Source: Candidatus Woesearchaeota archaeon
GTDB taxonomy: Archaea > Nanobdellota > Nanobdellia > Woesearchaeales > UBA11576
Length of the DNA: 64,000 nt
Assembly (NCBI GenBank): GCA_018675335.1
Contig: JABGYH010000007.1
Span: 468,986 to 532,985, forward strand
Reading direction: 5' to 3'
The notes beneath the pieces were generated by a model. The model had not been told where the DNA came from, ran no database searches, and saw only the letters and a program-made list of their open reading frames with translations. A program made the translations under genes and the position numbers. Shown here piece by piece: positions 1 through 18,413 of this stretch (positions are counted from its first letter, which is position 1; each line of letters begins with the position of its first letter).

Positions 1-1
1 T

Positions 2-259
2 ATTGAAAAAGTTAAAAGAGGTTCTTTTGTACCTGGTGGTTCTACAAAAGGCAATGAATATTATTTAATTGTAAAAGAAATGACCAATGATAAACTTAAA
101 GCAATGTCAAAACCAAAAGGATATATCGAATGTGATAAACTTGTTGATCAACTTGCAAACCCTGAGCAAGACGCAAAAGAAACAACCGTTACTACTTCTA
201 CTACCACAACAATTAATTCTGAACCAGGTGGAGTTCGTAATGACGTAATAAACAAATAA
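2..259 (+). CDS. 3' end of a hypothetical protein (85 codons visible, Thr-rich stretch near the C-terminus)
   Basis: Frame is open from the window edge to TAA at 257-259 (IEKVKRGSFVPGG...TTVTTSTTTTINSEPGG...). No recognisable motif. Confidence 0.45.
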   Translation: MEKVKRGSFVPGGSTKGNEYYLIVKEMTNDKLKAMSKPKGYIECDKLVDQLANPEQDAKETTVTTSTTTTINSEPGGVRNDVINK

Positions 260-421: not shown

Positions 422-3400
422 TTGAAAAAAAGGGGTAATCGAAATATTTATAGATTTCACACTAATAAAAAAGGAAATATTATGCATGAAATGTATTTCT
501 TTATTTTCCAAGTATTTCTAATAGGAGTAGTAACTATCGCCCTTTTTCAATACGTAAATTCAGTTGCAACCGATATGAGTTTTGAAAAAAAATATGCAGC
601 ACTTGATGCAGGACTATTAATGTCAGTTGTGCAAACTGCTCCAGGATTTACCTTTCATAAATTTCAAGCACCCCATTTTGAAGAAATAAATAAAGATGCC
701 AAAGTACAAATGTATTTTCGAGATTCAGTAGTCGTCGTACACGAACTTGAAGAAATACAAGAATTTAAAGGAAAATTTATTCAAGACAGAAGTCTTATGA
801 ATTATTTAAAAAATGCATTATTTAATTTTGAAGAACCAATTTTTTACAAAGCAGGAAACAAAGTATTTGTAAGTGATAATTCTAATCAAAATCTTCATCA
901 ACAATTATGTTCAAACACAAACACAACATTTCCTGAATGGCGTGATGAAAAAACAATTCTTTTAAAAAAATTAGGAAAAGTTCCTGAAGCAAAAGCAATA
1001 GTTTCTGCAGTAATTGATCCTTCTCAAATGCCTTCCACTCTGCCTGGCGCCCCACAACAAATTGCAACAGATAATGAAATAGATCAATTCCTAGCACAAG
1101 AAGCCCAAAAATTAGGAGTTGAGTTTGTTTTTTTTAAAGCACTAACCATAGTTGAAGCAGGAGGTAAGTTTTTCTCAAGTGATGGTCGAATAGTAATTCG
1201 AATGGAGCCACATGTTTTTAATTCAAGACATTTAGGACCTGAGTTTAAAAAAGTTAAACGAGATGATGCAGGAAGTTGGGGAACTAGTACAATTAATGGG
1301 CGAATGATAGGTGGAGTTAGTTGTCAGGGGGGACAAGAAAATGAATACAAATGTTTTGAAAAAGCAATAACTATCAATGAAAAAGCAGCATACTTGTCAA
1401 TTAGTATGGGTGCACCACAAATTATGGGGTTTAATCATAAAACTGCAGGTTATTCTTCTCCTCAAGAAATGTTTAAAGACTTTCAAGCATCGGGACTTAA
1501 TCAAGTTAAAGGATTTATTAAATTTGTAGAAAATTATAGAACTTTACTAAAGTCTGCACAATCAAAAAACTTCGCATCATTTGGGCAAACATATAATGGT
1601 GATACTACTGGAAAATATGCAGCAAAACTTGAAAAAATATATAATCAACAAAAAATAAAATATAGTGGAGGATCAGCAGTTGCAACAAGTACGGGCGGCG
1701 CTAATTCTGTAAGTTCAGGTACTGTTCCAACAAGTGCATTAACAACCTCAATTGTGAATTCTATTTCCACATCTTTTTCTAGTTTTGGAGGAATTACCGG
1801 AATGGCAACGGGAGACACTGAAGAATCTGGTAAAGAAGGAAACGGGGGGAAAAAATTAGAAGATCTTGATCCTAAAGATTATGTATCTCACACAAGTGAA
1901 GATGCTGATAATGGCGAACTTGAGTCAGATTATAGTCATGTAGAATTAACAGAAGAAGATATTGGAGAATCTAGTTTGGTTGGAATGTCATTTGTTGATT
2001 TGAATGGACTGCCAATTGATTGCACTAAAGGATTATATGCAGAACAAACAATCGATACAACTCTTAAAGAAAAAATAGAAGCAAAAGCATTTGGATCAAA
2101 GAAAACACTCAAACAAGAAATAATTGAATCAGCAACAACAAAAGGATTTCATCCTGCAATGCTTGCAACATTTGCACAACTTGAAACAAATCTTGGAAAA
2201 GAAGATACTTGTCAAAAAACATATCAAAAAAGTATGATTACAAAATGTGGTGCAACTTCCCAAAATATTTGTTCAGATGGAACTAACACTGATCGAGCAC
2301 AACTTGATTGTACAATGAATGAAACTGATTTTGCGTATAGAACTGCGATTTCTGGACAAGATTTATTTGGAACTCCAAAATATACAAAATGCGATTATTT
2401 CTTTAAAGATTTAGATCCATTAAAAATTTGGAGTTGTATTTTTTGCTCTATGAAAGATAATAAACTTGCAAAAGAAGCAATAGGCAATTGTCAAAATGAA
2501 GACTTACCTCCTGAACAATGCACTGTTAATTGTGAATATTCCTCGAAGGTTTTATCAGAATATTGTTCTTGGTCAAATTATTTTGGGCCTGAATTTAAAC
2601 TTAATTCTGAAGCACAAGAAGAACAAATTAAAACAAGTACTTTAATTACTGAAGAAGATATAGAAAAAACTCAAGAAGTAACCACTTATTTTGATAAAAT
2701 AATAAAATTATTAACTGATGATTTAAACGCGCGTTATTCTATTAACGAACAAAAACCATCAATACAAATTGGTATTGGAGGACCAGGAGATGGGGAAGTA
2801 GATAAAGCACTTAAAATATTTATTTCTGCTGAATCAAAAGATATAGATTCTAATCGAAAACTTGCTTGTTTAATTATTAATGAACTTATGACTCCTGAAA
2901 GTGAAGTTGAATTCACACAAATAATTCCTGTGGCAACAGCTAAGTTGGGTGCGAATAATCCATTAAAATTTTTAGATTATGCGAGGGACGTTGATTCAAA
3001 TTCTGCAGGCGACCAAATCGACAAATCAAAACTTGTCGGATCAGAATCAAAGGTTGCCGTATTTATTGATTTAGGACGATTTGCACCCTCCGAAGTTCAA
3101 CCACAACAAATAGCATATGCAATTGATAATGCAGTAAGTAGATACTATGGAACAAAGCCCAAATATCAAGTGGATGGTTTTACAATCAAAGCAAAATATG
3201 GATTGCAAGATCAAATTAAATCATCACCTAGTTCTTGTCAACAAGCAAGTTCAAAAAAATTATTTTTACAATATCCTGCTCACCCAGATTACCCAGAGGG
3301 AAGGCAAGGAGAACTTGGCATGGTGTGGTTACCCAAACAAACACTATGTGGAGGATCCTTCCCTCTAATTATTATGCTTCACGGATGGAGAAATTCTGAG

Positions 3401-4861
3401 AAACCAAATGCAAATTTGTATTTAGGTGAAGATAGTACGCATGCATTTGATTTACTTGCGGAAGTTATGATTAATGCAGGCAAGATTCAACCAGTAATAA
3501 TCGCAGCTCCAATGGATGATCCAAAAAATGAACAAGAAATGAACAAACCTTATTGGAAACAAGATGAATATGATGTTACAACACACGTTGAAAAAATAAA
3601 TGAAGTACTTGCGTCAGATAAAATAACAATAAGTAGTGTTAGTGTGCTTGGTCATGGAAGTGCAATATGTGGTGGAGGAGTTAGACGAGCTGTTGAAAAT
3701 ATTCAAAACATAGATTTAAGTTCGAGCGCAGGAGCAGGACCAACAAAAGCAGCATTATATTTAGTTGGATTATTTGATGGTGGGTGTAATCAATTAAATT
3801 ATGCTCAGTTTGTAACCGAATCAATAAGTTCTGATAAAACAATTGTATCTCAGTTTCATAATGGACTTACAACTGGAGATGATAGTAGCGCAGATACATT
3901 AAAAGGAGAAACATCAGACAATTATTTAACACAAACAATTTATTCACAAAATTATCAAGAAGCATATAAAAATAAACTTAAACCTTGGTATACTTACAAA
4001 CTCAAGTTAAAAGATCAAGATATTTCTCACACTAAAGTTCCTGAAATTGGTTTTGCAGAATTACTTCTTGCGCATTTTAGTTTAGGTCAATCAGTTGTAA
4101 CTCCAAAATCAACGCAAACTGCAAGTATTTCACCTAGTCAAGGAACTCCAGGAACTGGAGGGGTGGATTATTCAAAAACAGAACTTCCCAAATTTAGTTC
4201 TTATAGTGAGTTCAAAAAACACTTCGCAAGTTTATCAACAGAACAAAAAATTGGGTTGTGGGGTTTTGGAAAGGCTAGAAAAGAAACAAGATATATAGTA
4301 TTTCATGATGGGGGAGGTTATGCATTAAAAACTCTAATTTGGGATTGGGCTGCAAGATCACAAAAATTAGATTATTTGCCTGAATGTCAAAGCAAACCTG
4401 AACTTTCAATTTGTCAGTCTAGACGAGTATCTTCACATTATCATATTGGATGTGATGGAACACTAACTGCTTTAATTCCAGATCACATAACTGCATTTCA
4501 TGCAGGATGCAATCCATCAAATCCTAGTTGTTATTTTAAAAGTGTAAATTCAAAATCTATAGGAATTGATTTTAGAAATTGTAAGAAATCAGGAGGAAGC
4601 CCATATACTGCAGAACAACATGCAGCAGGAAAACAATTGATGCAAACATTAAGTACTAAATATAATTTACCGTTAGATGATGATCATGTAGTTGCACACT
4701 TTGAAGTTGGGATGCATGGAGATCCATCCAAAGGATTTAATTGGGCTGCAGTAGGACTCACAGATCATAGAACTAATGGTTATTGTTGTAGACATCCAAC
4801 TGAGCAAAATTGTGCAAGGTATGTTTCAAAAGCAGGAGGAAGTAGTTGGTCTTGCGCGTAA
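422..4861 (+). CDS. Membrane-anchored multidomain peptidoglycan hydrolase: N-acetylmuramidase (PF11860/DUF3380-like) plus C-terminal N-acetylmuramoyl-L-alanine amidase (Amidase_2)
   Basis: 1479-codon ORF. GGGTGA at 410-415 lies 6 nt before TTG 422; the alternative start is ATG 482. N-terminal TM helix (FFIFQVFLIGVVTIALF). Residues ~215-410 match the muramidase family by eye (ALTIVEAGG with Glu codon at 1154, SMGAPQIMGFNHKTAGY, FASFGQTYNG). The last ~150 aa show Amidase_2 signatures (YIVFHDGGG; AHFEVGMHGDPSKGFNW, with His/Asp spaced as Zn ligands). A central esterase-like LIIMLHGW...VLGHGSA segment is uncertain. Confidence 0.8.
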   Translation: MKKRGNRNIYRFHTNKKGNIMHEMYFFIFQVFLIGVVTIALFQYVNSVATDMSFEKKYAALDAGLLMSVVQTAPGFTFHKFQAPHFEEINKDAKVQMYFRDSVVVVHELEEIQEFKGKFIQDRSLMNYLKNALFNFEEPIFYKAGNKVFVSDNSNQNLHQQLCSNTNTTFPEWRDEKTILLKKLGKVPEAKAIVSAVIDPSQMPSTLPGAPQQIATDNEIDQFLAQEAQKLGVEFVFFKALTIVEAGGKFFSSDGRIVIRMEPHVFNSRHLGPEFKKVKRDDAGSWGTSTINGRMIGGVSCQGGQENEYKCFEKAITINEKAAYLSISMGAPQIMGFNHKTAGYSSPQEMFKDFQASGLNQVKGFIKFVENYRTLLKSAQSKNFASFGQTYNGDTTGKYAAKLEKIYNQQKIKYSGGSAVATSTGGANSVSSGTVPTSALTTSIVNSISTSFSSFGGITGMATGDTEESGKEGNGGKKLEDLDPKDYVSHTSEDADNGELESDYSHVELTEEDIGESSLVGMSFVDLNGLPIDCTKGLYAEQTIDTTLKEKIEAKAFGSKKTLKQEIIESATTKGFHPAMLATFAQLETNLGKEDTCQKTYQKSMITKCGATSQNICSDGTNTDRAQLDCTMNETDFAYRTAISGQDLFGTPKYTKCDYFFKDLDPLKIWSCIFCSMKDNKLAKEAIGNCQNEDLPPEQCTVNCEYSSKVLSEYCSWSNYFGPEFKLNSEAQEEQIKTSTLITEEDIEKTQEVTTYFDKIIKLLTDDLNARYSINEQKPSIQIGIGGPGDGEVDKALKIFISAESKDIDSNRKLACLIINELMTPESEVEFTQIIPVATAKLGANNPLKFLDYARDVDSNSAGDQIDKSKLVGSESKVAVFIDLGRFAPSEVQPQQIAYAIDNAVSRYYGTKPKYQVDGFTIKAKYGLQDQIKSSPSSCQQASSKKLFLQYPAHPDYPEGRQGELGMVWLPKQTLCGGSFPLIIMLHGWRNSEKPNANLYLGEDSTHAFDLLAEVMINAGKIQPVIIAAPMDDPKNEQEMNKPYWKQDEYDVTTHVEKINEVLASDKITISSVSVLGHGSAICGGGVRRAVENIQNIDLSSSAGAGPTKAALYLVGLFDGGCNQLNYAQFVTESISSDKTIVSQFHNGLTTGDDSSADTLKGETSDNYLTQTIYSQNYQEAYKNKLKPWYTYKLKLKDQDISHTKVPEIGFAELLLAHFSLGQSVVTPKSTQTASISPSQGTPGTGGVDYSKTELPKFSSYSEFKKHFASLSTEQKIGLWGFGKARKETRYIVFHDGGGYALKTLIWDWAARSQKLDYLPECQSKPELSICQSRRVSSHYHIGCDGTLTALIPDHITAFHAGCNPSNPSCYFKSVNSKSIGIDFRNCKKSGGSPYTAEQHAAGKQLMQTLSTKYNLPLDDDHVVAHFEVGMHGDPSKGFNWAAVGLTDHRTNGYCCRHPTEQNCARYVSKAGGSSWSCA

Positions 4862-4910
4862 AAAAATAAATGCAATTTGATAAATAAACCTGATTTGATA
4901 GTGAAAAAAT

Positions 4911-5483
4911 ATGAAGTTAAATTTTCAAACAAAAATCTTGAAGAACAAGAACGCATTAATTACATTTAACATACTTGCAATGATTCCTAGAATAATTTTT
5001 TTAATTCTTGCGATGATTGCAATAGTAATACTTGTAAGATTATTTGTCGTAGGTCAATTAGATATAGATCCTGTAATTGCAGATGTATTTGAACATTCAT
5101 TATTGTATTCTCCAGGAGGGATTTCATTTCATGATCCATTAACTGGAAGAATATATCCTGGAGTAATTGATGGAACTCAATTTGGAATAAACAAACTCGA
5201 TCTTAATAAATCACTTAGTTTAGGCAATAATCGATTAATTGCTGCAAGAATAAATTTAGAAACTTTTGCGCTTGAAGGAAAACCAATTGTTGTAGGATAT
5301 CCTATATTATTTTATAATGAAGATTGGTACTATAACTGGAAACCATTGGCTGATTTGAATAGTAATTTGAAAGGTCTTGGAAAAGCAGATTATCACGTTA
5401 GAACTTTACCTGTTGTAGTTAGAACAGTTCTTGGGCCATATCAAGGGAAATTAACAATAAGAATGATTATTCCTAGAGGCTAA
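4911..5483 (+). CDS. Hypothetical membrane-anchored protein (Lys-rich N-region plus one TM helix)
   Basis: 190-codon ORF starting 50 nt after the upstream stop, on the same strand. N-terminus is KILKNKNALITFNILAMIPRIIFLILAMIAIVILV. No catalytic motif recognised. Confidence 0.6.
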   Translation: MKLNFQTKILKNKNALITFNILAMIPRIIFLILAMIAIVILVRLFVVGQLDIDPVIADVFEHSLLYSPGGISFHDPLTGRIYPGVIDGTQFGINKLDLNKSLSLGNNRLIAARINLETFALEGKPIVVGYPILFYNEDWYYNWKPLADLNSNLKGLGKADYHVRTLPVVVRTVLGPYQGKLTIRMIIPRG

Positions 5484-5531
5484 GAGTGCAATATTATTTT
5501 TTTGATATATTATTTTTTTAAGAGGAATTTT

Positions 5532-6167
5532 ATGAGTTGGAAAAAATCAGTTAATAAGAATAGAAAAAAAATATTGAAAAATAAAAAAGGATTCATAGCA
5601 AGCGCTATAGTTGATTTATACGCATATATCGTATTTGTGTTAGTTGTTTTAGTCTTTTATTTTATTTTCAAATGGAGTGCAGATGCTGACATTGTAAAAT
5701 ATGAAGCTTATACTTTGAATAATCAAGGCAATTATTTGGTTTCAGTATATTTGAAATTGCCTGTTGATGTAGTATCTCAAGATACTCAATTAACAATGGG
5801 TGAATTAATGCTTCTTGCAGAGGGAGATTCTGATAAATATAAACCTGAATTAATATCGCAAACAAATATTTTTTTACAAAAATTTGCAAATAAAGATAGG
5901 TGTTATATCTTTTTTATTGAAACTGCGAATTGGAAACATTTAGATTATCCCACTAAGTGTAATCAATTTTTTTATGCGTATGGGTCAAACCCGAGTGAAT
6001 TGAATAATCGAATAATAAGATTTTTAGATACAAAAAAGTTTCCACACGAACAATATCAAACACTAATTCCTTCATTAAATTATGAGGGTGATGCAATAGA
6101 TGTACGATTTTATTATATTTCAGAAAGCGTATATGATTTTTATGGATTTAAAGATTTAGTAAATTGA
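5532..6167 (+). CDS. Hypothetical membrane-anchored protein with a class III (type IV pilin-like) signal-peptide-like N-terminus
   Basis: ATG 5532 is preceded by AGAGGA; the ORF-track TTG 5502 has no SD. N-terminus is KNKKGFIASAIVDLYAYIVFVLVVLVF, i.e. K-G-F-I-A-S followed by a hydrophobic helix. Confidence 0.6.
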   Translation: MSWKKSVNKNRKKILKNKKGFIASAIVDLYAYIVFVLVVLVFYFIFKWSADADIVKYEAYTLNNQGNYLVSVYLKLPVDVVSQDTQLTMGELMLLAEGDSDKYKPELISQTNIFLQKFANKDRCYIFFIETANWKHLDYPTKCNQFFYAYGSNPSELNNRIIRFLDTKKFPHEQYQTLIPSLNYEGDAIDVRFYYISESVYDFYGFKDLVN

Positions 6168-6215
6168 ATTAAATGAATTAATTGTTTTAAAAAAATAAAA
6201 TAATTGTGTTAAAGA

Positions 6216-7694
6216 ATGAACAAATCAATTTTAAATAAGTTTTTTAAAAATAAGTTTTTAAGAAATAAACGAGGGATGTTGTTTAACATACTTTTAGTAA
6301 TAGTTACAGTAGTTATTCTTAGCAATGCTTTTGTTCAATTAACACACAAAAAAGAATTTAGAGACTATAATATTGGCGAACAACAAATGAAACAAATTCA
6401 AAAAATTCAAGCAGGAGAAAAGGCAGCATTATGTATTGACTTAGCATCAATTGTTGGAGTAAATCAAGCATTGTTTAAATTACAAGAAAAAGGTGGAACT
6501 AGTGGTGACTGCGGAGAATATTATGGATTTAATTTATGGCATGATAAAAAAGGAAAAGATTGTAGTCCAACAGATAAAGGTGTTAAGGAAGGAATGAAAA
6601 AACATTTCAAAGAAGTTTTTGAAAAATATTATTATTTTTGTCCAGGAGATTTTGTAAGGCAATTTGTAACAACTACTGAAATAAATGATATTAACTCACA
6701 AGCAACAGCATTAGGTGCGGGCACGCCTACAAGTCAAACTGCATCTGCTAATACTGTGCAACAACCATTAAGTCTTAGTGGCGGACTAAGATTTTCAGTA
6801 ATATCTGATGTTCATTTGCCAGGTGGAAAAAAATCTTTGGATGCAGCATTTAATTCAATGAAAAACTTAAATCCCAAACCCAATCTGGTTTGGATAACTG
6901 GAGATTTAACAAACTGTAATAATCATCCATCTAGTGGAGATAAAGACTTTGCATCAATTAAAGAATCAATGCAAATATTAGAATCTCAAGGGATACCTGT
7001 TTTTGTAGTTCCTGGAAATCATGATTTACATGAAAAATCCGGAAAATGCAGGCAACTTTATACTCAAACTTTTGCACAATTCCCAACACAATTATCTGTT
7101 CAAAACCAAGATATTTCAAAACAGCCTTTTTATTATTCATTTGATTTCCAAAATTCACATTTTATAGGGTTAAACATTGCTTCAAATAGTTTTTCAGAAG
7201 AACAAGCACAATGGGTTACAAGTGATATGCAAAAAGCAAAAACTCGAGGCGCACAACATGTTTTTGTATTTTTTCATGTACCTCCTGCAAATCCAATAAA
7301 TCAAAATAGTGGTTTTTCAAAAGCAGGAAGAAAAGGTGTTGTGTATAAAGGCAGTTCAAAAAACTTTATGCAAATATTTTCAAAATTCAATGCAGTGATA
7401 TTTGTTGGACATTTACACGTAAATTATTTAACAAAATATAAAGGAGTAAATATTGTTTATTCAGGAACTTCTTCAAATGATAGAGGAAATAATATTATTA
7501 ATGTTAAAGGAAGAAGACCACCCAAATCATTTTATGTAGTTGATGTTTTAAATGATCAAACATCATTTAGTATTCCGAGTGGAAATAATTTTGATACTCC
7601 ATTTGATACTACTAAACATTGGTTGCCATTACCTGAAAGAACAGATTATGCTTTTGAAAAATTTGATTATGGGAGTGCGCCACTAGTTGGCTGA
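6216..7694 (+). CDS. Membrane-anchored calcineurin-like metallophosphoesterase
   Basis: All five metallophosphoesterase motifs are readable: VISDVHLPGG, ITGDLTN, VVPGNHDL, FFHVPP, VGHLHVN. N-terminus is RNKRGMLFNILLVIVTVVIL. Confidence 0.8.
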   Translation: MNKSILNKFFKNKFLRNKRGMLFNILLVIVTVVILSNAFVQLTHKKEFRDYNIGEQQMKQIQKIQAGEKAALCIDLASIVGVNQALFKLQEKGGTSGDCGEYYGFNLWHDKKGKDCSPTDKGVKEGMKKHFKEVFEKYYYFCPGDFVRQFVTTTEINDINSQATALGAGTPTSQTASANTVQQPLSLSGGLRFSVISDVHLPGGKKSLDAAFNSMKNLNPKPNLVWITGDLTNCNNHPSSGDKDFASIKESMQILESQGIPVFVVPGNHDLHEKSGKCRQLYTQTFAQFPTQLSVQNQDISKQPFYYSFDFQNSHFIGLNIASNSFSEEQAQWVTSDMQKAKTRGAQHVFVFFHVPPANPINQNSGFSKAGRKGVVYKGSSKNFMQIFSKFNAVIFVGHLHVNYLTKYKGVNIVYSGTSSNDRGNNIINVKGRRPPKSFYVVDVLNDQTSFSIPSGNNFDTPFDTTKHWLPLPERTDYAFEKFDYGSAPLVG

Positions 7695-7704
7695 ATAGTT
7701 TAAA

Positions 7705-10674
7705 ATGAATAAAAAACAAAATGTTAAAAAATTGAAATCAATTTTTTTAGTTTTAACTTTAATTACTTTGTTAAGTTTAAGTTCTAGTTTTGTTTTTTCA
7801 GAAGAGGTTGCAGGAATTGATTTATGTTCTACTGCCAAAATTGCATTACTTGGAGATTCAATAACAAATTCAGCAGGGACTGCAGGGTGGGGTAATGAAC
7901 TTAGAAAATTATGCAATAATAATCCAATAAATTATGCTCACGGTGGAAAATTAACTATTTGGATGTTACAAAGATTAAAAGGAGAAAAGGATGACTCAAG
8001 CCCATATATTTCTGGAAAAATACTTGGTCAAGGTTATCAATACTTGATAGTAAAAGGAGGCACTAATGATATATCTTCGTCAAGATCTTTTGAACATATC
8101 ACAAATAATCTAGCTCAAATTTATTCGATTGCAAAGCAAGATGGAATAAAAGTAATCGCTGGAACTATTTCACCATATAATAAAGAACAAAATCCTGAAC
8201 GAAATGAATTAGTAAAACAAGTTAATAGTTGGATCAAACAACAACACTCAGAAGGAAAAATTGATGGAGTAATTGATTTTTATCAATTTCTTGTAGGAAC
8301 AGAACCATGTATGAATTCACAATATGCATCATCCTGTAATAATGTTCATCCTAATACTGCAGGATATAAAGCCATGGCTGAGAAAGTTAAATCAGAATTA
8401 TTTGGGTCTGGATCTGATGGTTCAATTAGTGCCACGCAAACTACGTCCATAAATTTAGGTGAGGGAGTAAAAATACTTCATATTGGAGATAGTCATAGTG
8501 CACAAACCTATGGAAAAGAACTTGCAGCTCAATTAAGAAGTGGTGGTGCTACGGTTAGACATTATGGGCAATGTGGATCAAGACCTTCTTGGTGGTTAGA
8601 AAAAGATTCTACTAAAAATGCAAATTCAGGAGTTTCTGGGCATGCAACAACTTGTGGTTCATTATTTATTTTAGAAGATGGCAAAAAAAATCTTGTAAAA
8701 ACAAGAGCCACCCCATTATTACCTAATTTAATGTCAGAGTTTAAACCAGATTATGTTGCAGTATCACTAGGTGCAAACTTACACGGATTTGTAAATAAAA
8801 AATCAGGAGATGAATGGTTTGTTACAAAAGCATCAAGACTAATGGCAGAACAAATAGTTGCAGCAGGTTCTAAATGTATTTGGATAGGAGTTCCACAAGG
8901 ACCTAATAAAGTTCATTTAGAAAATTTGTATGAACGGATTAAAGCAGGAGTTGGGGATAAATGCACATTTATTGATTCTCGACCACACTCTAATTTTGAT
9001 TTTTGTGGAAATGGGAAATCTTGTTGTTGTAGTGCGAATGTTCATTTTGATGCTCACGGCGCTGCAGGAAAAAATGCAGGTGCAAAATGGGCTCGTGCAA
9101 TATACGCAGAAATAAAAAAATCAGGAGTTTCAATGCCAACTCAAGTTGCAACTCAATCTTTAGTTCCAACTCAAGTAGTTCAAAAAGGGCCGCCTCCAAA
9201 ACCTGCATATTACAATTTTCAATTTTTTCCAATGGGATCTAAAACAACAGTTATTGGTCTTGCAAAAAGTCATTGGGGTCCGACACTTGTAAAACAAGAT
9301 TTAGCAAAAGACTGGGCAGATCTTTTTGGTGGGACTATTTTAGAAAGTAGTGCTGAAAATGCTTTAAGCATAAAATCTGATGTTTCACAAGATTTGAATA
9401 TGAATTTTAATCTTGTTGATGGAATATCTGTTAATACACCTGATTATGGTCAAATGACTTTAAATCCAACACAACAATGTCCGTCAGATATTTGTGAATG
9501 GGACCCAATGGAAAAAGGATTTAGTCGAGATAATATAGATGGACTTGTAATTCATTGTACTGTTGGAGGATCAGCAAAATCAACTGCAAATACTTTCAAA
9601 AAAAGAATGGCAGATCGTCTTAAAGAAAAGCCAGGTAAAAGATATAGTGGAGGAACACAATATGTTTTTGGACGTGATGGAAAATATATTCAACAAGTAA
9701 AAGAAGAAATGGGTCTTTATCATACTAGTGATTCTAAACGAGATAAAACAAATATTGGAATTGAAGTTGCAAATTCTGAAAGTTTATGTAAACAAGTTTG
9801 TACTGGGGGTGTATGTAAACCTGACGCTTGTCAAAAACCAAATGTTCCAACAGGCATTCCAGAATACAATTATTGGAAAAGTAAATCAACTAAATATTTA
9901 GAAACATATAGTGAAACTCAACTCAAAGCATTAGTAAAATTAAGTGCTGAAATTTTCTTAAGACAAAATTTGAAAATTGATGGACTCATAAGACATCTCG
10001 ATGTTACTATGAGTGGAAAAGGAACACATACTGATCCGGGACCTCATTTCCCTTGGGACAAATTCAAAAAAAATGTTTTAGCTGCAGTAAATGAATATAA
10101 AAAACAAGCAGGAAATGGTGCAGTTTCTGAAGGGGCAAGTAGTGGTAGTTTAACAAGTGCTCAAACAGGAGGAATTATTCCTGCAAATCCTGAAGGAAAT
10201 CATGATCCTGTGCCTCAAGTTTATACAAAATATAAACAATTAGAATCCGTTTATGGAACTACTGAATCAGGGATTAAATCTCAGTTAGTTAGTATTGATT
10301 TTATGGGGCGAAAAGTTCCTGTTCATAAAAACGCAAAAAAAGCATTTGAATATGTACTCGCAGATATTAAACAATGTCCTGAAGCACAAAGTTATCCTTA
10401 CTGGAGCACTGTTTGGACACACAATTATCGTTGTGTACTTCATAAAGGAACTCCTCCAAATTGTGACATTGGACTAAGTGCTCACAGTTTTGGAACTGCA
10501 ATTGATATAAATCCTAAAGGTAATCCCTATTCCAAAACAAAATTAGTTTATGATATTCCTCCTTGCGTTATTGGTGCATTTAAACGATATGGTTTTAGAT
10601 GGGGGGGAGATTGGAAAACTGCAAAAGATGCAATGCATTTTGAGTTTATGGGAAATCCTGCAAGTTTGGCTTGA
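7705..10674 (+). CDS. Secreted four-domain cell-wall hydrolase: SGNH esterase, second SGNH-like domain, Amidase_2, peptidase M15 (VanY/Hedgehog-type)
   Basis: Signal peptide KKLKSIFLVLTLITLLSLSSSFVFS. SGNH blocks are IALLGDSITNS, KGGTNDI and VHPNTAGYKAMA. Second domain has ILHIGDSHSAQ...VHFDAHGAAG. Amidase_2 signatures are LVIHCTVGG, NIGIEVAN and RHLDV...THTDPGPHFPW. M15 Zn motif is SAHSFGTAIDINP (H-x6-D, His codon at 10483) plus DAMHFEF (His codon at 10636). Confidence 0.85.
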   Translation: MNKKQNVKKLKSIFLVLTLITLLSLSSSFVFSEEVAGIDLCSTAKIALLGDSITNSAGTAGWGNELRKLCNNNPINYAHGGKLTIWMLQRLKGEKDDSSPYISGKILGQGYQYLIVKGGTNDISSSRSFEHITNNLAQIYSIAKQDGIKVIAGTISPYNKEQNPERNELVKQVNSWIKQQHSEGKIDGVIDFYQFLVGTEPCMNSQYASSCNNVHPNTAGYKAMAEKVKSELFGSGSDGSISATQTTSINLGEGVKILHIGDSHSAQTYGKELAAQLRSGGATVRHYGQCGSRPSWWLEKDSTKNANSGVSGHATTCGSLFILEDGKKNLVKTRATPLLPNLMSEFKPDYVAVSLGANLHGFVNKKSGDEWFVTKASRLMAEQIVAAGSKCIWIGVPQGPNKVHLENLYERIKAGVGDKCTFIDSRPHSNFDFCGNGKSCCCSANVHFDAHGAAGKNAGAKWARAIYAEIKKSGVSMPTQVATQSLVPTQVVQKGPPPKPAYYNFQFFPMGSKTTVIGLAKSHWGPTLVKQDLAKDWADLFGGTILESSAENALSIKSDVSQDLNMNFNLVDGISVNTPDYGQMTLNPTQQCPSDICEWDPMEKGFSRDNIDGLVIHCTVGGSAKSTANTFKKRMADRLKEKPGKRYSGGTQYVFGRDGKYIQQVKEEMGLYHTSDSKRDKTNIGIEVANSESLCKQVCTGGVCKPDACQKPNVPTGIPEYNYWKSKSTKYLETYSETQLKALVKLSAEIFLRQNLKIDGLIRHLDVTMSGKGTHTDPGPHFPWDKFKKNVLAAVNEYKKQAGNGAVSEGASSGSLTSAQTGGIIPANPEGNHDPVPQVYTKYKQLESVYGTTESGIKSQLVSIDFMGRKVPVHKNAKKAFEYVLADIKQCPEAQSYPYWSTVWTHNYRCVLHKGTPPNCDIGLSAHSFGTAIDINPKGNPYSKTKLVYDIPPCVIGAFKRYGFRWGGDWKTAKDAMHFEFMGNPASLA

Positions 10675-10721
10675 TTTTAAAATTATTATTTATTAGAATT
10701 CCAAATGAATTAAAACAAAAA

Positions 10722-12707
10722 ATGAATCAAAACAAAACATGTAAAAAATTGAAAGCGATGTTTGTATTTTTAATTGTATTAGGTTTATTTATTCAATTGA
10801 TTAGTTTATCTGTTGCAGAAGAAATTAGTGAATCTGATTTGAATAATTTTAGTGCTGATTTAATTAATTATCCTGATGATATACTTGACATAGATTATGA
10901 TTTAGGAGAAAAAATTATTTATTTTACAATAGAATCAAATTCAGGAAAAATTAATATTGGAGATTTATTTATTTTTAATAAAGACTATACTCTTCCTGAT
11001 TATTCTGAAGATTTAGAATTAAAATATTTAGTTGAATTCTATGATTTTTATGGAACTCTTTTATCTTCTGAAGAAACATCTGAAATTTATGTTGGTGTTA
11101 TGAATCCTGCAACAGAAAAAATTGTAATAAAAAAAGATCAAATAATAGTTTATGAACATAGTTTTGACGTAAACATTCAAAAATTAAACTCGATTTCAAA
11201 TAATCTCGAAAAATATATTTTTATTGAATCAGTATTAACTGATGATGATGTAAAATTTAACAAAGCATATGTTATTGAAGATAATTCGTTTTATTCAGGA
11301 CTTTTTTTGAAACATTCAGGACCTCTCGATTATGAAAAAGTATACTTAGTATTATCTTCTTCAGATAATCCTTCAGTATTTGAATTGGAATATGATTATT
11401 TAGCATTTCAATATGATGTTGAGGATATCCAAACATTAGATCCTGAACTCAAACCTGATGATTCATTTTTACCTTTACTCAATTCAGAAAAAAAGAAAAA
11501 ACTTATTAAAATTGAAATGGACGCTAAAGACGATTATGAACTATTATTATTTAATTCGTTAACAAAATTATTACAAATTTATCAACCTAATTTATGGGGG
11601 TTTGATGAACTAATGTATCAGAGATCTATTGATTTTTGTGATGGTGATGGGATTTGCGAGCCTTGCTTTAGTGATGATTGTTTAGTTTCTGAAACTTTCG
11701 CATCTTGCGGGGATTGTAGTTCTGGAAGTTTAGATAATTATTGCGATTTAAGATCTGATGGGGTTTGTGATCCTGATTGCGAAGGCTATGATTTAGATTG
11801 TGGATTTTGTGAAAAAGATCGGGGCTGTTTATTATCTTCTAAATCATTTGAAGAAATAAGTTGTGACACTATTGGTGGATTTAATTGTTTAACTGATATG
11901 AGTTGTTATGACGGATTAGTTGTTGACACACTCGATTCGGGAATTTGTTGCGTTGGTGGTTTTTGTCAAGCAGACTATTATGGTGCTTTATATGATTTTG
12001 AATCGGAACCTGAGTTTGATATTGAATATGATGAAAAGGGAGTTGTTCAAATATTTAAACCAACAATTGTTGACTTGGATAATTCTCAATTAGCTAACTC
12101 TTTGTCACCATTACCTTTTGAACAAAATATTAATTTATTATCTGCAGAAGCTGCAGAACAAAAAATAATGGAAGATTTTAGTACTATTGATTTTGAAATT
12201 TCAAAAACTGGAGAAGCAGTACCTAAAGAAATAGTTGAGTTAGAAGAAAGCGAAAAAGAATTTGAAAAATCAATGCAACAAGATTTTGAACAAACAAGTC
12301 AAGAAATAAATTCACCACTAAAACCATATTCATTTTTGTTTATATTTATTTTAATTATAGTTGTTATTTTAATTGTGTTTGCGTTTATTGTATCTTTTGT
12401 TAGAAATTCAAAAAAACAAATACCTCTAACTAAAGAGTATAATTCTAAACAATTTGCGCAACCAACCACTCAAGTAAATCAAAGATCAACTCAACAATTT
12501 GCGCAACCAACTAATAAGTTATCTGCACAAAATCAACCTGCCTACTATGATTTACAAAAAATAATAACTGACATGGTGAAAAGAAGATATAATTATTCTC
12601 AAATAAAACAAATATTAATTAAAAAAGGATACTTATCTTCAAATGTAGATTCAGAAATAAGAAAACACTATTCCAATTTTACTCAAAAATATGGTGTGAG
12701 AAAATAA
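10722..12707 (+). CDS. Cys-rich surface protein with signal peptide, C-terminal TM anchor and short cytoplasmic tail
   Basis: ATG 10722 yields a canonical signal peptide (KKLKAMFVFLIVLGLFIQLISLSVA/EE), whereas TTG 10671 overlaps the upstream stop. Cys-rich core is CDGDGICEPCFSDDC...CDPDCEGYDLDCGFC. TM segment is YSFLFIFILIIVVILIVFAFIV. The tail contains a QFAQPT repeat. Confidence 0.65.
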   Translation: MNQNKTCKKLKAMFVFLIVLGLFIQLISLSVAEEISESDLNNFSADLINYPDDILDIDYDLGEKIIYFTIESNSGKINIGDLFIFNKDYTLPDYSEDLELKYLVEFYDFYGTLLSSEETSEIYVGVMNPATEKIVIKKDQIIVYEHSFDVNIQKLNSISNNLEKYIFIESVLTDDDVKFNKAYVIEDNSFYSGLFLKHSGPLDYEKVYLVLSSSDNPSVFELEYDYLAFQYDVEDIQTLDPELKPDDSFLPLLNSEKKKKLIKIEMDAKDDYELLLFNSLTKLLQIYQPNLWGFDELMYQRSIDFCDGDGICEPCFSDDCLVSETFASCGDCSSGSLDNYCDLRSDGVCDPDCEGYDLDCGFCEKDRGCLLSSKSFEEISCDTIGGFNCLTDMSCYDGLVVDTLDSGICCVGGFCQADYYGALYDFESEPEFDIEYDEKGVVQIFKPTIVDLDNSQLANSLSPLPFEQNINLLSAEAAEQKIMEDFSTIDFEISKTGEAVPKEIVELEESEKEFEKSMQQDFEQTSQEINSPLKPYSFLFIFILIIVVILIVFAFIVSFVRNSKKQIPLTKEYNSKQFAQPTTQVNQRSTQQFAQPTNKLSAQNQPAYYDLQKIITDMVKRRYNYSQIKQILIKKGYLSSNVDSEIRKHYSNFTQKYGVRK

Positions 12708-12710
12708 AAA

Positions 12711-15700
12711 TTGAAAACTATGGTTTATGCAAATAATAAAAGTAAAAACAAGAATAAGTTTAGAATGAATTTATTAGTTTTAACTATCTTGTTTATATTT
12801 TTAGTATCATTAGTTTCTGTTCAAGCAATAACTTATGCACAACATTCGCCAAAATGGAAACCTGAATGGAATGATTACATTGCCGAAGGAATTGACACAA
12901 AAGCACCCAAGTTACTTGATGAAACTTTTTTACCGCCAGATGCTTTTGAAATATGTCCTGGATTAAAAGGATCGAGCACAGATCAAAAAAAAGCATTTTG
13001 GGCATTATTTTTCGCATCATTTGCTAAATTTGAATCAGGATTTAATCCTGGAACTACATTTGACGAAAAAGCACTATCTCAAAAATACGGAAAAGAAATA
13101 ATTAGTGAAGGCCTCTTGCAATTAAGTTATGGTGATGGAAAAAATCATCCTCCTTGTGAAATAAGTAAAGCAAAACAAAATGTTCAAGATCCAAAAGTAA
13201 ATCTTCAATGTGGCACAGTAATTATGAAAAATCAAATAATTAAAAAAGGAGTTTTATTTCCTGATGGTAAACATTATTATTGGTCAGTTCTAACAAAAAA
13301 TAGGGCTAATGGTGTTGAAACATACAAAAAAGTTCAAGATTATTTTTTAAAATATGCCCCTCAATTAGGTTTTTGTGGGGAGGGGGATGTAAGTTCTGCT
13401 AGTTCTCAATCAAGTTGTCAACTAACAACCAATGCACAACCAAATGAATTTAAAAATATGTTAATTTTAGGAAATGTTGAAGAGTCAGTTCGAGTTAAAC
13501 GAATTAATGGCGCATATGAATTAATGCAAAAAGGCAATTATGAAAATATTATAGTTTCTGGAGGGTGTGGTGCACATAAATCTGCAAAAGACAATTGTGA
13601 ATCAGTACACATGGCGAAATTATTAGAACAAAAAGGAGTTTCTTCCGATAAGATATATCAAGAAGGAAAATCTGGAAGCACAAATTCTAATTATAAAAAT
13701 TCCATAAAATTAACTAAACCTGATGGTTCTTTAGTTTTTAAACCAGGAGAAAAAACAGTTGTTGTCTCAAATCATCCGCATGCAAAATCAGTTGCATATT
13801 GTTTAAGATATGTTAATAAAATTGATGCATATTATTATATTGTGGGTGAATCATCTGTTCCTATGATAGTTCCAGAGGATTCTAAAGTAAATTATGCAGG
13901 AATGGTTACTAGTTGTATGCTTTCAAAAAAAGAAGTCGAATGTGCTTCTGCAGTAGAAGGTTCAGGCGTTGTTTCACAAACTCCTCCTTCAAGTATATCA
14001 CAATCAGGAGTATTTGTTCCACAAATATCCTACTTACCAACATTTTCTAGTACTTTTCGTAAAACTGATTATTCATTTAATCCTTCATTTAGACTTGATG
14101 TCGCTTACGATTTTGAAATATATAATAAAATAGTTGAGCAAGTAAAAGAATTGAAGCGATGTAAGGGAGACGTTGATTGCGTTGAAGAAGAATTAAAACA
14201 AAGATCAAATAATTTGTGGATGGGAAAAATATTTTCAGATGTTCAAAAAGCAACTGGTGGAGACGAACTTTTTTCATTTTGGATGGGAAAACACGCAGGG
14301 CGAATAGTAAATGAAGAAACTAAAACTCTTGAAAATTCTATAGGAATTGATGTTGGAGAAGTTCCTGAATGGAATTTATATTGTGAAAATCCTGCAGAAG
14401 ATGCAGTAAGTTCAATTGCAGAATTTATTGATGATTGTGCACGAGTAAAAGATACAAATTGTTATTGTGAATTTGAAACCCCTGAACGATTTGTTAATTT
14501 ATTTATTGATTTTGATGTTAGACTTAATTCTAATCCTAGTTCAAAAAATGTTGTTATAAGTTTACCTGAACCTCTCGAAGTCGATCAAAGTATTTACTCA
14601 GGAGAATATGGTTTGTTTGGGAGTAGTTTATTTGGAGATAAGTATAAATTTAATTCAAAATCATTTGAAGTTTCTGATGCGCTACTTTATACTGTTCGAG
14701 ATAATAGTCTTATGACTGATGCGTTAGATTTTGTAACTATGCAAGATACGCCCGAAGGAAAATTTTTAGTTGGTAATTTTGATTTTGAGCTTGATGAATA
14801 CAGTTCAATATATTTAACAAAAAATTCTTCTGAAATTGATATGGGACTTTATTTTGATGTTCCTGATTCTAGCATGAAACAATGTGATATGGAACAAACA
14901 CCAATGAGATTTTTTAAATTCTGTGTTAAATCATTTTCTACATTTTACGCATTTGATCCGCAAAAGAAAAAATTAGAAGAAAAAGACGTTGTAATAAAAT
15001 TTGCAGAAATATTTAGGACATCACTTCCTGAAGTACAAAATTTTAAAGCAATGAGTTTATACGGATTTGAAGGTGGAACCTGGGTTATGTGGGATGAAAT
15101 TACTGAAGGGGACATGGATTCATATCAGATTTTTGTTTTGGATCCGTCCAAATCAGGAAAGATAAGTAAAATATCTCCTGAAGAAGCACTAGTAAAACAA
15201 TTTAGTGGAGACTTAGGAGATGTCAAATTAGAAAAAATAGATGTTAGTAGTTCTGAAGAGATACAATCAATTGATTTAACTCGATTTATATGTTCCGATG
15301 CAACTGACACTTGTACCATTTCTTACGAAGGAGAATCCGAACAGGGATCTGCAATTGAATTATTACCTGAACAATTATACTATGTTAAACAAGGACATTA
15401 TTATCTTTATTTTATTCCGGAACTTGAAATTGGAAAAAATTATTGGATGGGAATATATGGGGTTGATGTTGATGATTATAAATCTCCTGCAATTACTGGA
15501 ATAACTGCCAAATCTGAAGATAAATTACCTCCTGCAATTGTAAATTTAGAAGTTGAGGAAGTCACATTTAAAGAAGAAGAAGCGGGAACTGTAAGATTCT
15601 TTGTAACTGAAATTCCTTCATATAATTTAGATGGGACTGAACTGAACTTTACTGAAATATCTCGAATTGATTTATTTTGTGCAAATACTGCAACACCTCA

Positions 15701-15917
15701 AATTGGTTCTAATTTAGCTGAACAAAAAATAGTAAGTTTGGGTGCACTACCCTTCCCAGTTTTAGAAGTTACACATCCATTCTCCGCATTAAAAACTTGT
15801 CCAAAAGATTTAGATCAAACATCTCATTTTTTTGCAATTGCTGTTGATAAATCAGGAAATTCATTTAAAGGAGAATTTCCAACAGATTATACTTATCCTC
15901 TCTTCTTTAGTGAATGA
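12711..15917 (+). CDS. Exported lytic transglycosylase (SLT-like) plus DUF218/YdcF-like domain protein with a large C-terminal region of unknown function
   Basis: SLT signatures are FAKFESGFNP (Glu codon at 13032) and EGLLQLSYGDG. A DUF218-like segment is IIVSGGCGAHKS...YQEGKSGSTNSNYKNS. N-terminal anchor is FRMNLLVLTILFIFLVSLVSVQA. The C-terminal end carries FN3-like AVDKSGN. Start is TTG 12711 or ATG 12720. Confidence 0.75.
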   Translation: MKTMVYANNKSKNKNKFRMNLLVLTILFIFLVSLVSVQAITYAQHSPKWKPEWNDYIAEGIDTKAPKLLDETFLPPDAFEICPGLKGSSTDQKKAFWALFFASFAKFESGFNPGTTFDEKALSQKYGKEIISEGLLQLSYGDGKNHPPCEISKAKQNVQDPKVNLQCGTVIMKNQIIKKGVLFPDGKHYYWSVLTKNRANGVETYKKVQDYFLKYAPQLGFCGEGDVSSASSQSSCQLTTNAQPNEFKNMLILGNVEESVRVKRINGAYELMQKGNYENIIVSGGCGAHKSAKDNCESVHMAKLLEQKGVSSDKIYQEGKSGSTNSNYKNSIKLTKPDGSLVFKPGEKTVVVSNHPHAKSVAYCLRYVNKIDAYYYIVGESSVPMIVPEDSKVNYAGMVTSCMLSKKEVECASAVEGSGVVSQTPPSSISQSGVFVPQISYLPTFSSTFRKTDYSFNPSFRLDVAYDFEIYNKIVEQVKELKRCKGDVDCVEEELKQRSNNLWMGKIFSDVQKATGGDELFSFWMGKHAGRIVNEETKTLENSIGIDVGEVPEWNLYCENPAEDAVSSIAEFIDDCARVKDTNCYCEFETPERFVNLFIDFDVRLNSNPSSKNVVISLPEPLEVDQSIYSGEYGLFGSSLFGDKYKFNSKSFEVSDALLYTVRDNSLMTDALDFVTMQDTPEGKFLVGNFDFELDEYSSIYLTKNSSEIDMGLYFDVPDSSMKQCDMEQTPMRFFKFCVKSFSTFYAFDPQKKKLEEKDVVIKFAEIFRTSLPEVQNFKAMSLYGFEGGTWVMWDEITEGDMDSYQIFVLDPSKSGKISKISPEEALVKQFSGDLGDVKLEKIDVSSSEEIQSIDLTRFICSDATDTCTISYEGESEQGSAIELLPEQLYYVKQGHYYLYFIPELEIGKNYWMGIYGVDVDDYKSPAITGITAKSEDKLPPAIVNLEVEEVTFKEEEAGTVRFFVTEIPSYNLDGTELNFTEISRIDLFCANTATPQIGSNLAEQKIVSLGALPFPVLEVTHPFSALKTCPKDLDQTSHFFAIAVDKSGNSFKGEFPTDYTYPLFFSE

Positions 15918-17429: not shown

Positions 17430-17531
17430 TTTTTTAATAATTTTTTTCTTATTTATTTTTCTTAACTTGTCTAATATTAATCATTTTAAGCTAGAAATCT
17501 TTATTAACTTCTGTTTTTTAACTATTTTAAA

Positions 17532-18143
17532 ATGAAAACACGAAAAAGATCTGGTTCTATCATAATTTTAGCATTATTAGTATTTACTATGTTTTTTTTA
17601 GTTGGGTGCGCATGTGACGAAAAGGAAGTAAAATACTTTGAAAAAGTACCCATAATTGAAAATAAAGCAAATATTGTGGAATCAACTGAAACTATACAAG
17701 AAGAATACTTAGATAAAGAATGCATTTCAGTTCCAAATTACGAATTAGAATTAGGCGAGCTTACTTGGCTTAATGGAGAAAAAACCGGGGATAATCAAGC
17801 AAAAAGAACAGTTACTATAACTAATCCCAATCCAAAACTAGTCACATTTTATTTTGATAAAGTTTTTTTAGCTGGGGAAGAAGAGGTTTGGAGAAGTAGT
17901 CCATCATATGAACAAAAATTACCTGCAAAGGGATCTAGAAATGTTTATTTGATTTGGAATACGGAATACTCAAAAGATAAAGATATAGTTGTAGATTTAA
18001 TGAACAAAACATCAATTCCTGGAAAACAATCTTGTGAATTTGTGAAAAAAACTAAAGATGTTGAGATTTCTGTTAATACAACAGTTCCCTATACTGAAAC
18101 TCACTTCGAAACTGTAATTAAGACAAAAAAAGTTTGTACATAA
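17532..18143 (+). CDS. Putative lipoprotein (lipobox LVGC)
   Basis: N-terminus is KRSGSIIILALLVFTMFFLVGCACDE. No other motif recognised. Confidence 0.55.
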   Translation: MKTRKRSGSIIILALLVFTMFFLVGCACDEKEVKYFEKVPIIENKANIVESTETIQEEYLDKECISVPNYELELGELTWLNGEKTGDNQAKRTVTITNPNPKLVTFYFDKVFLAGEEEVWRSSPSYEQKLPAKGSRNVYLIWNTEYSKDKDIVVDLMNKTSIPGKQSCEFVKKTKDVEISVNTTVPYTETHFETVIKTKKVCT

Positions 18144-18413
18144 GTTTTAGTTGAGTTTTAAGAAAATTATTTAGATTAGTTCTTTTATTTATTTTTATTA
18201 AATTAAAATGAGGTTTAAAACAACTATGCGGAGTATTTCAATTTTTTGTGAAATTTTTAGATCGAAAACGTTTCTGCATGTGCTCAAAAATTAATTTGAT
18301 TTTTGGCATCCTAAAAATCTTGGATTTTTATGAAATCAATGATATTTCGTTAAATAAAATGAACAAAAAGTTTCAAGTTATTCTCCAAGGCATAGTTTGT
18401 ATATTTATCTAAA

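Follow-up and report, generated by a model that had tools for sequence, protein, structure and literature searches.

A conserved locus in DPANN archaea with clustered, exchangeable candidate murein hydrolases beside prepilin-like genes

Murein hydrolases have been reported in Woesearchaeota, Pacearchaeota, and Nanoarchaeota since 2015, and the concept that DPANN archaea direct extracellular murein hydrolases against bacteria has been published (PMC8204110, PMC9723730, PMC12352652, PMC13162412). Examples are the large extracellular murein transglycosylases of Woesearchaeota and Pacearchaeota, for which an episymbiotic or predatory lifestyle has been considered (PMC8204110, PMC9723730, PMC10936187). 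Archaeal murein hydrolases that kill bacteria, which are prominent in Nanoarchaeota, have been demonstrated by Strock et al. (2025), who called the clustering of archaeal antibacterial genes unknown (PMC12352652). Here, we describe seven adjacent genes, O1 to O7 (positions 422-15917), in a 64,000-nucleotide stretch (hereafter the window) of contig JABGYH010000007.1 from a Candidatus Woesearchaeota archaeon (assembly GCA_018675335.1, positions 468,986 to 532,985). The published Woesearchaeal transglycosylases (fam00969, PMC8204110; GH23 of the “vampiristic” Woesearchaeota, PMC9723730) come from the same group, are large exported SLT-type proteins like O7 and its relatives P0004, P0005, and P0008, and were likewise proposed to bind or degrade the walls of bacterial hosts. 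However, they are single proteins with one recognized domain, whereas at least five predicted murein-cleaving families are clustered here with esterases and phosphoesterases, within a conserved locus that also has pilin-like genes and whose cargo is exchangeable. The modular peptidoglycan hydrolases surveyed by Strock et al., with the GH25 lysozyme of A. boonei, are also archaeon-encoded, exported, and derived from bacteria or phages, but they require both a catalytic and a cell wall-binding domain (LysM, SH3, PG_binding, etc.), and O1 to O7 fall outside this definition, with no known cell wall-binding domain found by Pfam at an E value of ≤0.01. In addition, those genes are patchy and often plasmid borne, in contrast to the chromosomal, positionally conserved locus described here (PMC12352652).

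In the literature searched, there was no description of an operon-scale clustering of archaeal murein hydrolases, of a conserved chromosomal cassette with exchangeable catalytic domains, or of a link between murein hydrolases, a prepilin-like gene array, and a conserved four-protein set. The initial annotation of this DNA had regarded the consolidation of the enzymes as its unusual part. Because murein hydrolase genes in DPANN archaea are already published, the novelty lies in the clustering and the locus architecture and not in the existence of such genes.

The open reading frames (ORFs) of O1 to O7 all lie on the + strand, as do all of their domains listed below, and the ORF listing of the window bears out the close spacing noted at first, with intergenic gaps of -4 to ~49 nucleotides (nt). 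The first four genes form a conserved quartet. O1 (422..4861; 1479 amino acids [aa]) begins with a conserved N-terminal module (O1N) that carries a class III-like signal and continues with several domains. O2 (4911..5483; 190 aa) belongs to a widespread family with no assigned function, O3 (5532..6167) has 211 aa, or 221 aa from a TTG codon at 5502, and O4 (6216..7694; 492 aa) combines an N-terminal module (O4N; aa 14-173, nt 6255-6734) with a variable catalytic C terminus. O5 (7705..10674; 989 aa) is a predicted four-domain enzyme. O6 (10722..12707; 661 aa, or 678 aa from TTG 10671) has an acidic, Cys-rich ectodomain and a C-terminal transmembrane anchor and is possibly a scaffold; related proteins are present in two other loci, L015 and L017. 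O7 (12711..15917, alternative start 12720; 1068 aa) contains an SLT-like domain, DUF218, and a C-terminal region of ~650 aa. All seven products have a Lys-rich N terminus followed by a strongly hydrophobic 19-mer (Kyte-Doolittle values of 2.3 to 3.2) and are predicted to be exported. This common feature is nevertheless of two kinds, with ordinary Sec signal peptides in O5, O6, and O7 versus class III-like K-K/R-G/A motifs before the helix in O1 to O4. The genes do not form a self-contained seven-gene operon, as had been assumed: upstream reading on the source contig (L001/L002) places them as the distal half of a co-directional block of at least 22 genes, which starts with genes for giant immunoglobulin (Ig)-like proteins, including one of 1422 aa (Big_13), followed by ~14 small genes.

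Most of the catalytic domains proposed in the initial annotation were recovered in a Pfam scan (reporting threshold, E≤0.01) and retain legible catalytic motifs. The N-acetylmuramidase domain of O1 (PF11860; 1133..1648, aa 238-409) scored 6e-34 and 118 bits against a cut-off of 22.3; it matches the endolysins 7RUM, 7Q4S, and 5NM7 (E values of 3e-20 to 6e-14), and its VEAGG and QIMGFN motifs align with 7RUM. The two Amidase_2 domains (PF01510; cut-off, 26 bits) with their predicted His/His/Asp ligands are found in O1 (4283..4729, aa 1288-1436; 4.8e-17, 63 bits) and O5 (9529..10044, aa 609-780; 1.7e-13, 51.5 bits). The His/Asp ligand region of the former aligns with AmpD, the latter aligns with AmiD (2BH7) and AmpDh2, including the C-terminal His...Asp, and the N-terminal His of each can be read directly (FHDGGG and VIHCTVGG). 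O5 ends with a Peptidase_M15_4 domain, an LAS-type zinc peptidase (10474..10644, aa 924-980; 5.5e-19, 69 bits against a cut-off of 25), whose SxHxxGxAxD motif (SAHSFGTAIDI) and distal His (MHFEF) align with the L-Ala-D-Glu peptidase PlyA500 (2VO9) and with LysB4. This domain is 40 to 59% identical to M15 modules of phage tape-measure and lysin proteins. The calcineurin-like metallophosphoesterase of O4 (6789..7421, aa 192-402; 6.3e-16, 59.8 bits) is complete, with all five metal-binding motifs legible (DVH, GDLTN, GNHD, H, and GHLH), and DUF218 was identified in O7 (13461..13817, aa 251-369; 1.1e-12). DUF218 always adjoins GDSL in the Woesearchaeal homologs P0002 to P0009, and O7 aa 225-668 share 40% identity with a protein of L015 containing Exo_endo_phos and DUF218.

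Two of the earlier assignments stand in a weaker form. The lytic transglycosylase-like domain of O7 (12864..13331, aa 52-207) matches an “SLT domain-containing protein” in the PDB (6TA9; E = 1.2e-14), with its FES and GLLQLS motifs aligned, but gave no Pfam SLT match at E≤0.01. Of the SGNH esterases in O5, domain 1 (Lipase_GDSL_2; 7840..8388, aa 46-228) is supported by Pfam (6e-20, 72.9 bits), and among solved structures it is closest to the carbohydrate acetyl-esterases 7TOJ and 7TOG; in the alignment, the Asp of block V is replaced by Asn (NNVH). Domain 2 (8437..9144, aa 245-480) is a tentative SGNH fold in which GDSH, G, GxN, and H blocks are visible. Its AlphaFold model, of moderate quality (pLDDT 62), matches the folds of TesA, OatA, and PatB (E values of 2e-5 to 7e-4), the latter two of which are peptidoglycan O-acetyltransferases, and a weak DUF459 match was seen in the homologous L015 segment. 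No profile matched domain 2, and because its hhalign comparison with GDSL domain 1 was negative (1.8%), the SGNH assignment is taken from the fold search. O2, O3, and O6 have no recognized Pfam domain. The initial statement that essentially every bond class in murein is covered was too broad, as neither a glucosaminidase nor a cross-link endopeptidase (M23 or NlpC/P60) was found in the 64-kb window. Judged by their families and motifs, the catalytic domains are murein specific and look intact. We infer that the enzymes cleave murein and that the archaeon that owns them has none.

Other regions of O1 are less readily classified. The Cys-rich region (2054..2596, aa 545-725; HPAMLATFAQLET) also occurs in the Woesearchaeal proteins P0003 and P0009 (phmmer and BLAST E values of ~1e-11 to 1e-13). 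It was considered as a third glycan-cleaving, SLT-like domain and rejected: hhalign against SLT alignments gave a probability of 17%, and the Glu is not kept in the O1 ortholog P0011. A conserved region (3056..3673, aa 879-1084) has phmmer matches to L021_590 and L017_1582 and no profile match; an esterase-like HG...GHG motif in it was seen by eye only.

The gene order sought in related genomes was found in several of them. The relative L014/L015 (JGI Ga0209045_1000405), with protein identities of 45 to 57% and a metagenome scan match at 53%, contains giant proteins, 15 K-K-A-Q genes, and orthologs of O1 to O4, followed by different enzymes. Five further loci (L017 to L021) were found by probing with O2-family members. 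The order O1N-O2-O3-O4N is kept in these six other DPANN loci, with L017 being partial, as its contig begins at O2. Homology within the quartet is supported by E values of 1e-23 to 1e-34 for O2, 1e-8 to 1e-30 for O1N, 3e-4 to 1e-21 for O3, and 1e-7 to 1e-30 for O4N, with O3 orthologs in L015, L017, L018, L019, L020, and L021. The small-gene array has orthologous counterparts in L015, L018, L019, and L021. Across the seven loci, the window included, the N-terminal modules are kept, and the catalytic domains attached to and following them are, by these predictions, exchanged among murein hydrolase families. In the window, O1N is joined to the muramidase and Amidase_2 and O4N to Metallophos, with O5 and O7 nearby. 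In L015, O1N is joined to a muramidase and O4N to a weak Metallophos match, and the nearby proteins carry GH75 with DUF459-like and NlpC/P60 domains and Exo_endo_phos with DUF218. The O1 ortholog P0011 is 45% identical and has no Amidase_2 domain, and the O4 N-module is 60% identical to that of the L015 ortholog, with different C termini. In L017, O4N is joined to GDSL, near Metallophos with C39_2 and a weak M15_4 match with C39_2. In L018, O1N is fused to Amidase_3 and O4N to TSP3, near Glucosaminidase with VanY; in L020, O1N is again fused to Amidase_3 and O4N to M23, with no recognized enzyme nearby. O1N is followed by other C termini in L019 and L021; no murein-specific domain was recognized in L019, and only a weak C39_2 match was found in L021. 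Phosphoesterases recur across the loci as Metallophos, Pur_ac_phosph_N, or Exo_endo_phos. In both L018 and L020, RPA-YdjM-x-RadA(-TRAM) lies downstream of the cassette, just as in the window. The RadA identity is only 64 to 69%, and therefore the position appears to be old and the cargo mobile.

The O2 family comprises 430 representative clusters (E≤1e-3) of ~170 to 190 aa with the N terminus NKKG..S....IPR..FL. The AlphaFold model of O2 (pLDDT 88.9) consists of helices at residues 13-47 and 53-66, a ~50-residue helix in all, followed by ~6 strands in a beta-rich domain. Weak summed matches of the beta domain to bacterial He_PIG and cadherin-like Ig repeats were seen (P0132 and P0135). In L020 (10001-11854; P0085), the O1N-Amidase_3 and O2 genes are fused and encode a single 617-aa protein, which supports a link of O1 with O2, be it physical or functional.

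A second Woesearchaeal group of loci (L003 to L008) encodes ~1000-aa proteins that recombine GDSL, DUF218, SLT, Metallophos, M15_4, M23, polysaccharide deacetylase, and 3D domains, and the Woesearchaeal homologs of O5 belong among such proteins. A scan of species-representative genomes with the GDSL domain returned only four related archaeal loci, and O2, O3, and O6 were not connected to those four by BLAST at 1e-5. Various Woesearchaeal hydrolases (P0002 to P0009) have a recurring ~45-aa linker motif (LPKRQEEIDEAW...VWD...W.W..KVYY), which is near-identical in two different proteins of one genome (L004 10001-13195 and 14096-16705). It was not seen in the window proteins and could serve in docking or binding or mark a hotspot of domain shuffling.

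The N termini of the quartet and of the upstream array resemble archaeal prepilin (class III) signals. The last array gene, with a 283-aa product, reaches into the window with its 3′ end (1..259, +), and the remainder of the ~14-gene array lies upstream of it (L002 1600-9778). Its small products share an N-terminal K-K-A/G, in most cases with Gln as the next residue, ahead of a very hydrophobic helix (e.g., SKKAQGLSLNLIIVAV and NKKRGQGLSMTVIVVAA); the last of them has K-K-A-Q, and Gln is at position +1 in 10 of the 14 upstream proteins. Among the quartet, O1 (KKG|NIMHEMYFFIF; motif and helix at 467..553, aa 16-44), O3 (KKG|FIASAIVD), and O4 (KRG|MLFNILLV) are clear and O2 (NKNA|LITFNIL) less so, and the L015 ortholog of O1 has RRA|T before the helix. 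A loose class III pattern fits 17 of the 18 proteins of the array and quartet, as well as orthologs in five other loci, and is absent from Sec-type and housekeeping proteins. The K-K/R-G/A directly before the helix is kept in orthologs and in a 45-sequence alignment of the O2 family. For comparison, EppA-type prepilin processing occurs at [KR][GA]|Q before a hydrophobic helix, and the Sulfolobus bindosome shows that class III signals also occur on large proteins that are not pilins (PMC4371748). The bindosome is like the present locus in that large proteins with [KR][GA]|x and a helix, here by prediction, are encoded beside small pilin-like genes and displayed at the surface, but its subunits bind sugars and are not hydrolases, and its PibD processing and BasEF assembly have been shown experimentally (PMC4371748), whereas no assembly genes were seen in the present window or its readable flanks. 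Two ~315-aa array paralogs combine the K-K-A-Q helix with a Gly/Ala-rich C-terminal hydrophobic segment (L002 3964-5925; L015 3520-5519; L018 2625-4708) and are probably anchored at both ends, unlike typical pilins.

These features suggest that the locus probably, though by no means certainly, encodes a surface apparatus with which a DPANN archaeon of the Woesearchaeota type breaches or degrades bacterial murein wherever it meets a bacterial cell. O1 to O4 would be held on the archaeal surface by their N-terminal helices, either as signal-anchored proteins or after prepilin-like processing into a pilus- or bindosome-like structure, and O6 by its C-terminal helix. O-acetyl groups on N-acetylmuramic acid (MurNAc) block lytic transglycosylases; the SGNH esterases may strip these groups so that the SLT domain and the muramidase can cut the glycan. 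The two Amidase_2 domains would detach stem peptides, and the M15 peptidase would cut within them. The phosphoesterase, and DUF218 by an undefined activity, might speculatively act on phosphodiester-linked wall polymers. The resulting local breach of the wall could serve attachment, cytoplasmic contact, or nutrient release. The lack of a Pfam-recognized cell wall-binding domain in O1 to O7 fits enzymes that are placed by the producer cell and not by the substrate. The kinship of the M15 domain with phage tape-measure modules, which breach walls from outside, also counts in favor of such an apparatus. The initial annotation had already suggested a dedicated apparatus to attack, attach to, or scavenge from bacteria. 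The clustered exported enzymes, the archaeal chromosome, and the conserved locus agree with it, but the unit is larger than the seven genes, and the concept was already published.

Comparable lifestyles are known among ultrasmall epibiont bacteria. Saccharibacteria with type IV pili (PMC11623550) and Vampirococcus (PMC8080830) likewise have reduced genomes and use pili, giant surface proteins, and murein- or membrane-damaging enzymes to exploit bacterial hosts; however, they belong to another domain of life, their proteins are unrelated, and pili and hydrolases have not been reported there as one locus with shared N-terminal modules. The closest catalytic modules are those of phage virion-associated murein hydrolases and endolysins (7RUM, 5NM7, PlyA500, LysB4, and tape-measure M15), and the virion-associated enzymes also breach the wall from outside at the contact point. 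In contrast to phage systems, the present locus has no phage structural, holin, or replication genes, is part of an archaeal chromosome, and encodes far larger proteins.

Several points weigh against this interpretation. The bacterial partner is hypothetical, and the enzymatic and cell-biological roles are predictions from sequence. O5 and O7 are unanchored and might simply be lost by diffusion. A stricter, FlaFind-like pattern fits only a few of the proteins. No pilin or class III family (PF07790, PF04021, or TIGR02537) was matched at E≤1 in Pfam and NCBIfam by any of these proteins, including the array products, O2, and O3; the only sub-threshold hints were bindosome BasB (0.03) and a prepilin-type domain (0.013). 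Foldseek gave no significant PDB match for the O2 model (best E value, 0.04), a profile of the small array proteins found no solved pilin among PDB sequences, and no prepilin peptidase, PilB, or PilC was found in the window or the readable flanks. By the positive-inside rule, a Lys-rich segment before a membrane helix is also expected for a plain signal anchor, which is possible for O1 to O4. The uniform K-K-A-Q motif of 14 adjacent genes, kept across loci, is harder to explain as a plain anchor, and for the small upstream proteins, prepilin-type processing and assembly into a structure like a pilus or bindosome is, on balance, the likelier case. Given a contact-dependent breach of the wall, true prepilin processing and filament assembly of O1 to O4 themselves would be the less probable case. 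A more specific and still more tentative proposal is a type IV pilus-like or bindosome-like filament in which O1 to O4 are a “minor-pilin” set with interchangeable murein hydrolase warheads, i.e., a wall drill with host-matched cargo. The minor-pilin tip complexes of type IV pili (FimU-PilVWX with PilY1) and type II secretion systems (GspH-I-J-K) offer an analogy: they are also ordered sets of four, one or two with large extra domains, and the quartet likewise lies beside candidate major pilins. They have no sequence or fold similarity to O1 to O4, and no bacterial tip pilin is known to carry a murein hydrolase.

Among the alternatives to a contact apparatus, the one that fares best, although unlikely, is that the enzymes digest free murein debris (necromass) for amino sugars and amino acids, with no contact or killing. 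DPANN genomes are biosynthetically poor, and peptidoglycan decomposition genes are transcribed by Woesearchaeales during carcass decay (PMC13162412). The mixture of esterase, phosphoesterase, and peptidase looks catabolic, M24 and M29 peptidases are encoded near the cluster, and Sec secretion of the unanchored O5 and O7 would suit this role. However, no transporter and no catabolic gene for MurNAc or N-acetylglucosamine (GlcNAc) was found in the locus or the window, the cluster sits among giant adhesin-like and pilin-like surface proteins, and four of the seven proteins are predicted to be membrane tethered.

Release of the enzymes as diffusible antibacterial lysins for competition, as in Halogranum salarium, seems more improbable still. 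Killing of bacteria by peptidoglycan hydrolases from archaea is documented (PMC12352652), the domains have their closest counterparts in phage endolysins, and an archaeon would need no immunity protein. Against this, the absence of a recognized cell wall-binding domain sets these proteins apart from the modular lysins surveyed by Strock et al., most of them are very large (492 to 1479 aa), and several are anchored. The chromosomal position is also conserved, and the conservation is vertical, neither patchy nor plasmid borne.

A substrate other than murein, for example, chitin or chitosan, pseudomurein in a methanogen serving as host, or glycans of the archaeon's own envelope, is quite improbable. 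Literature discussed in PMC9723730 links Woesearchaeota to methanogens. The GH75 domain in one relative is chitosanase-like, the solved structures closest to SGNH domain 1 belong to acetyl-xylan esterases, and DUF218, Metallophos, and O6 have no murein-specific role. These points are outweighed by the recurrence across seven loci of Amidase_2, Amidase_3, M15 LAS, PF11860, SLT, M23, NlpC/P60, and glucosaminidase domains, families that act on MurNAc-linked peptides and the MurNAc-GlcNAc glycan; pseudomurein contains neither MurNAc nor D-amino acids. Even less probable is a role as autolysins of a murein-like wall built by the lineage itself. DPANN archaea do carry many bacterial-type genes (PMC8204110), but no murein synthesis gene was found in the 64-kb window or its flanks, no DPANN murein is reported in the literature searched, and the free swapping of catalytic families between relatives would be unusual for housekeeping autolysins.

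The catalytic domains are all of bacterial or phage type, as would also be expected if the first 16 kb came from a bacterium or phage and had been wrongly joined to archaeal DNA, but relatives have the same cassette followed by RPA-YdjM-RadA, and the chance of such an artifact is negligible. The owner is an archaeon, as first annotated: the housekeeping genes of the window (RPA, RadA, TyrRS, PAN, PCNA, Hef, and PriL) are archaeal, and the nearest named homologs come from metagenome-assembled genomes of “Candidatus Woesearchaeota” and “Nanoarchaeota.” Seven contigs, which stem from at least two samples (ENA ERZ27237606 and JGI 3300072015), have the identical gene order; the longest, k141_91901 of ERZ27237606, measures 556,578 bp. 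The guanine-plus-cytosine (GC) content is 0.26 to 0.34 throughout, the tetranucleotide profile of the cluster correlates with that of the housekeeping part of the window (r = 0.96), and GGTGA-type ribosome-binding sites are common to the cluster, radA, and tyrS. Because of this uniform composition and the recurrence of the arrangement, a chimera is ruled out. Nor is the locus a prophage or lysis cassette, its neighbors being archaeal housekeeping and surface genes, and the DNA had no megablast match among 50,697 phage records. A chimeric or phage origin is effectively excluded, in agreement with the initial annotation.

Downstream of the cluster, three conserved anchor genes follow on the + strand (16431..18872), namely, RPA (16431-17429), a gene for a 203-aa protein (17532-18143), and YdjM (18414-18872). 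The 203-aa protein has a signal peptide ending in the lipobox-like LVGC (MKTRKRSGSIIILALLVFTMFFLVGCAC) and no Pfam match, and it may be an archaeal lipoprotein. A gene for a 90-aa ArsR-type helix-turn-helix protein (19001-19273, +) overlaps by 4 nt the start of a giant gene (19270-39996, +), whose 6908-aa product has DUF285 repeats, Laminin_G_3, and beta-helix domains and is likely an adhesin. The giant gene starts 3.35 kb past O7, which agrees with the ~3 kb first given for an adhesin-like neighbor. It is inserted between YdjM and RadA (40534-41583), which is followed by a TRAM protein (41713-42414), and it is missing from this position in L018 and L020. An 89-aa ORF between O7 and RPA (16016-16285) has the highest GC content of the region (0.367), is rich in Ala, Arg, and Asp unlike its neighbors, and is called as a gene in both source assemblies, with no Pfam match. 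Farther downstream, Pfam covers only aa 300-410 of the 560-aa product of the primase large-subunit gene (61303-62985), whose N-terminal part may be a fused small (catalytic) subunit. The GC skew is positive in every 2-kb bin of the window, with a monotonic rise of the cumulative skew, and the + strand holds nearly all of the long genes; the entire window seems to belong to a single, strongly strand-biased replichore. Scans of the 64 kb for tRNA genes and Rfam families found none.

Nearly all DPANN archaea are uncultured, and prior work on whether and how they parasitize bacteria has dealt with single murein transglycosylase or lysin genes. The locus shows that genes predicted to encode murein hydrolases do cluster in one DPANN clade, at a fixed chromosomal position and beside pilin-like and giant adhesin-like genes. 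It provides guilt-by-association candidates for contact machinery, namely, the O2, O3, and O6 families, the K-K-A-Q proteins, DUF218, and the phosphoesterases, and the relatives offer a panel of naturally recombined lytic domains that could be expressed and assayed on sacculi. The locus may also serve as a genomic marker for candidate bacteria-associated DPANN archaea.

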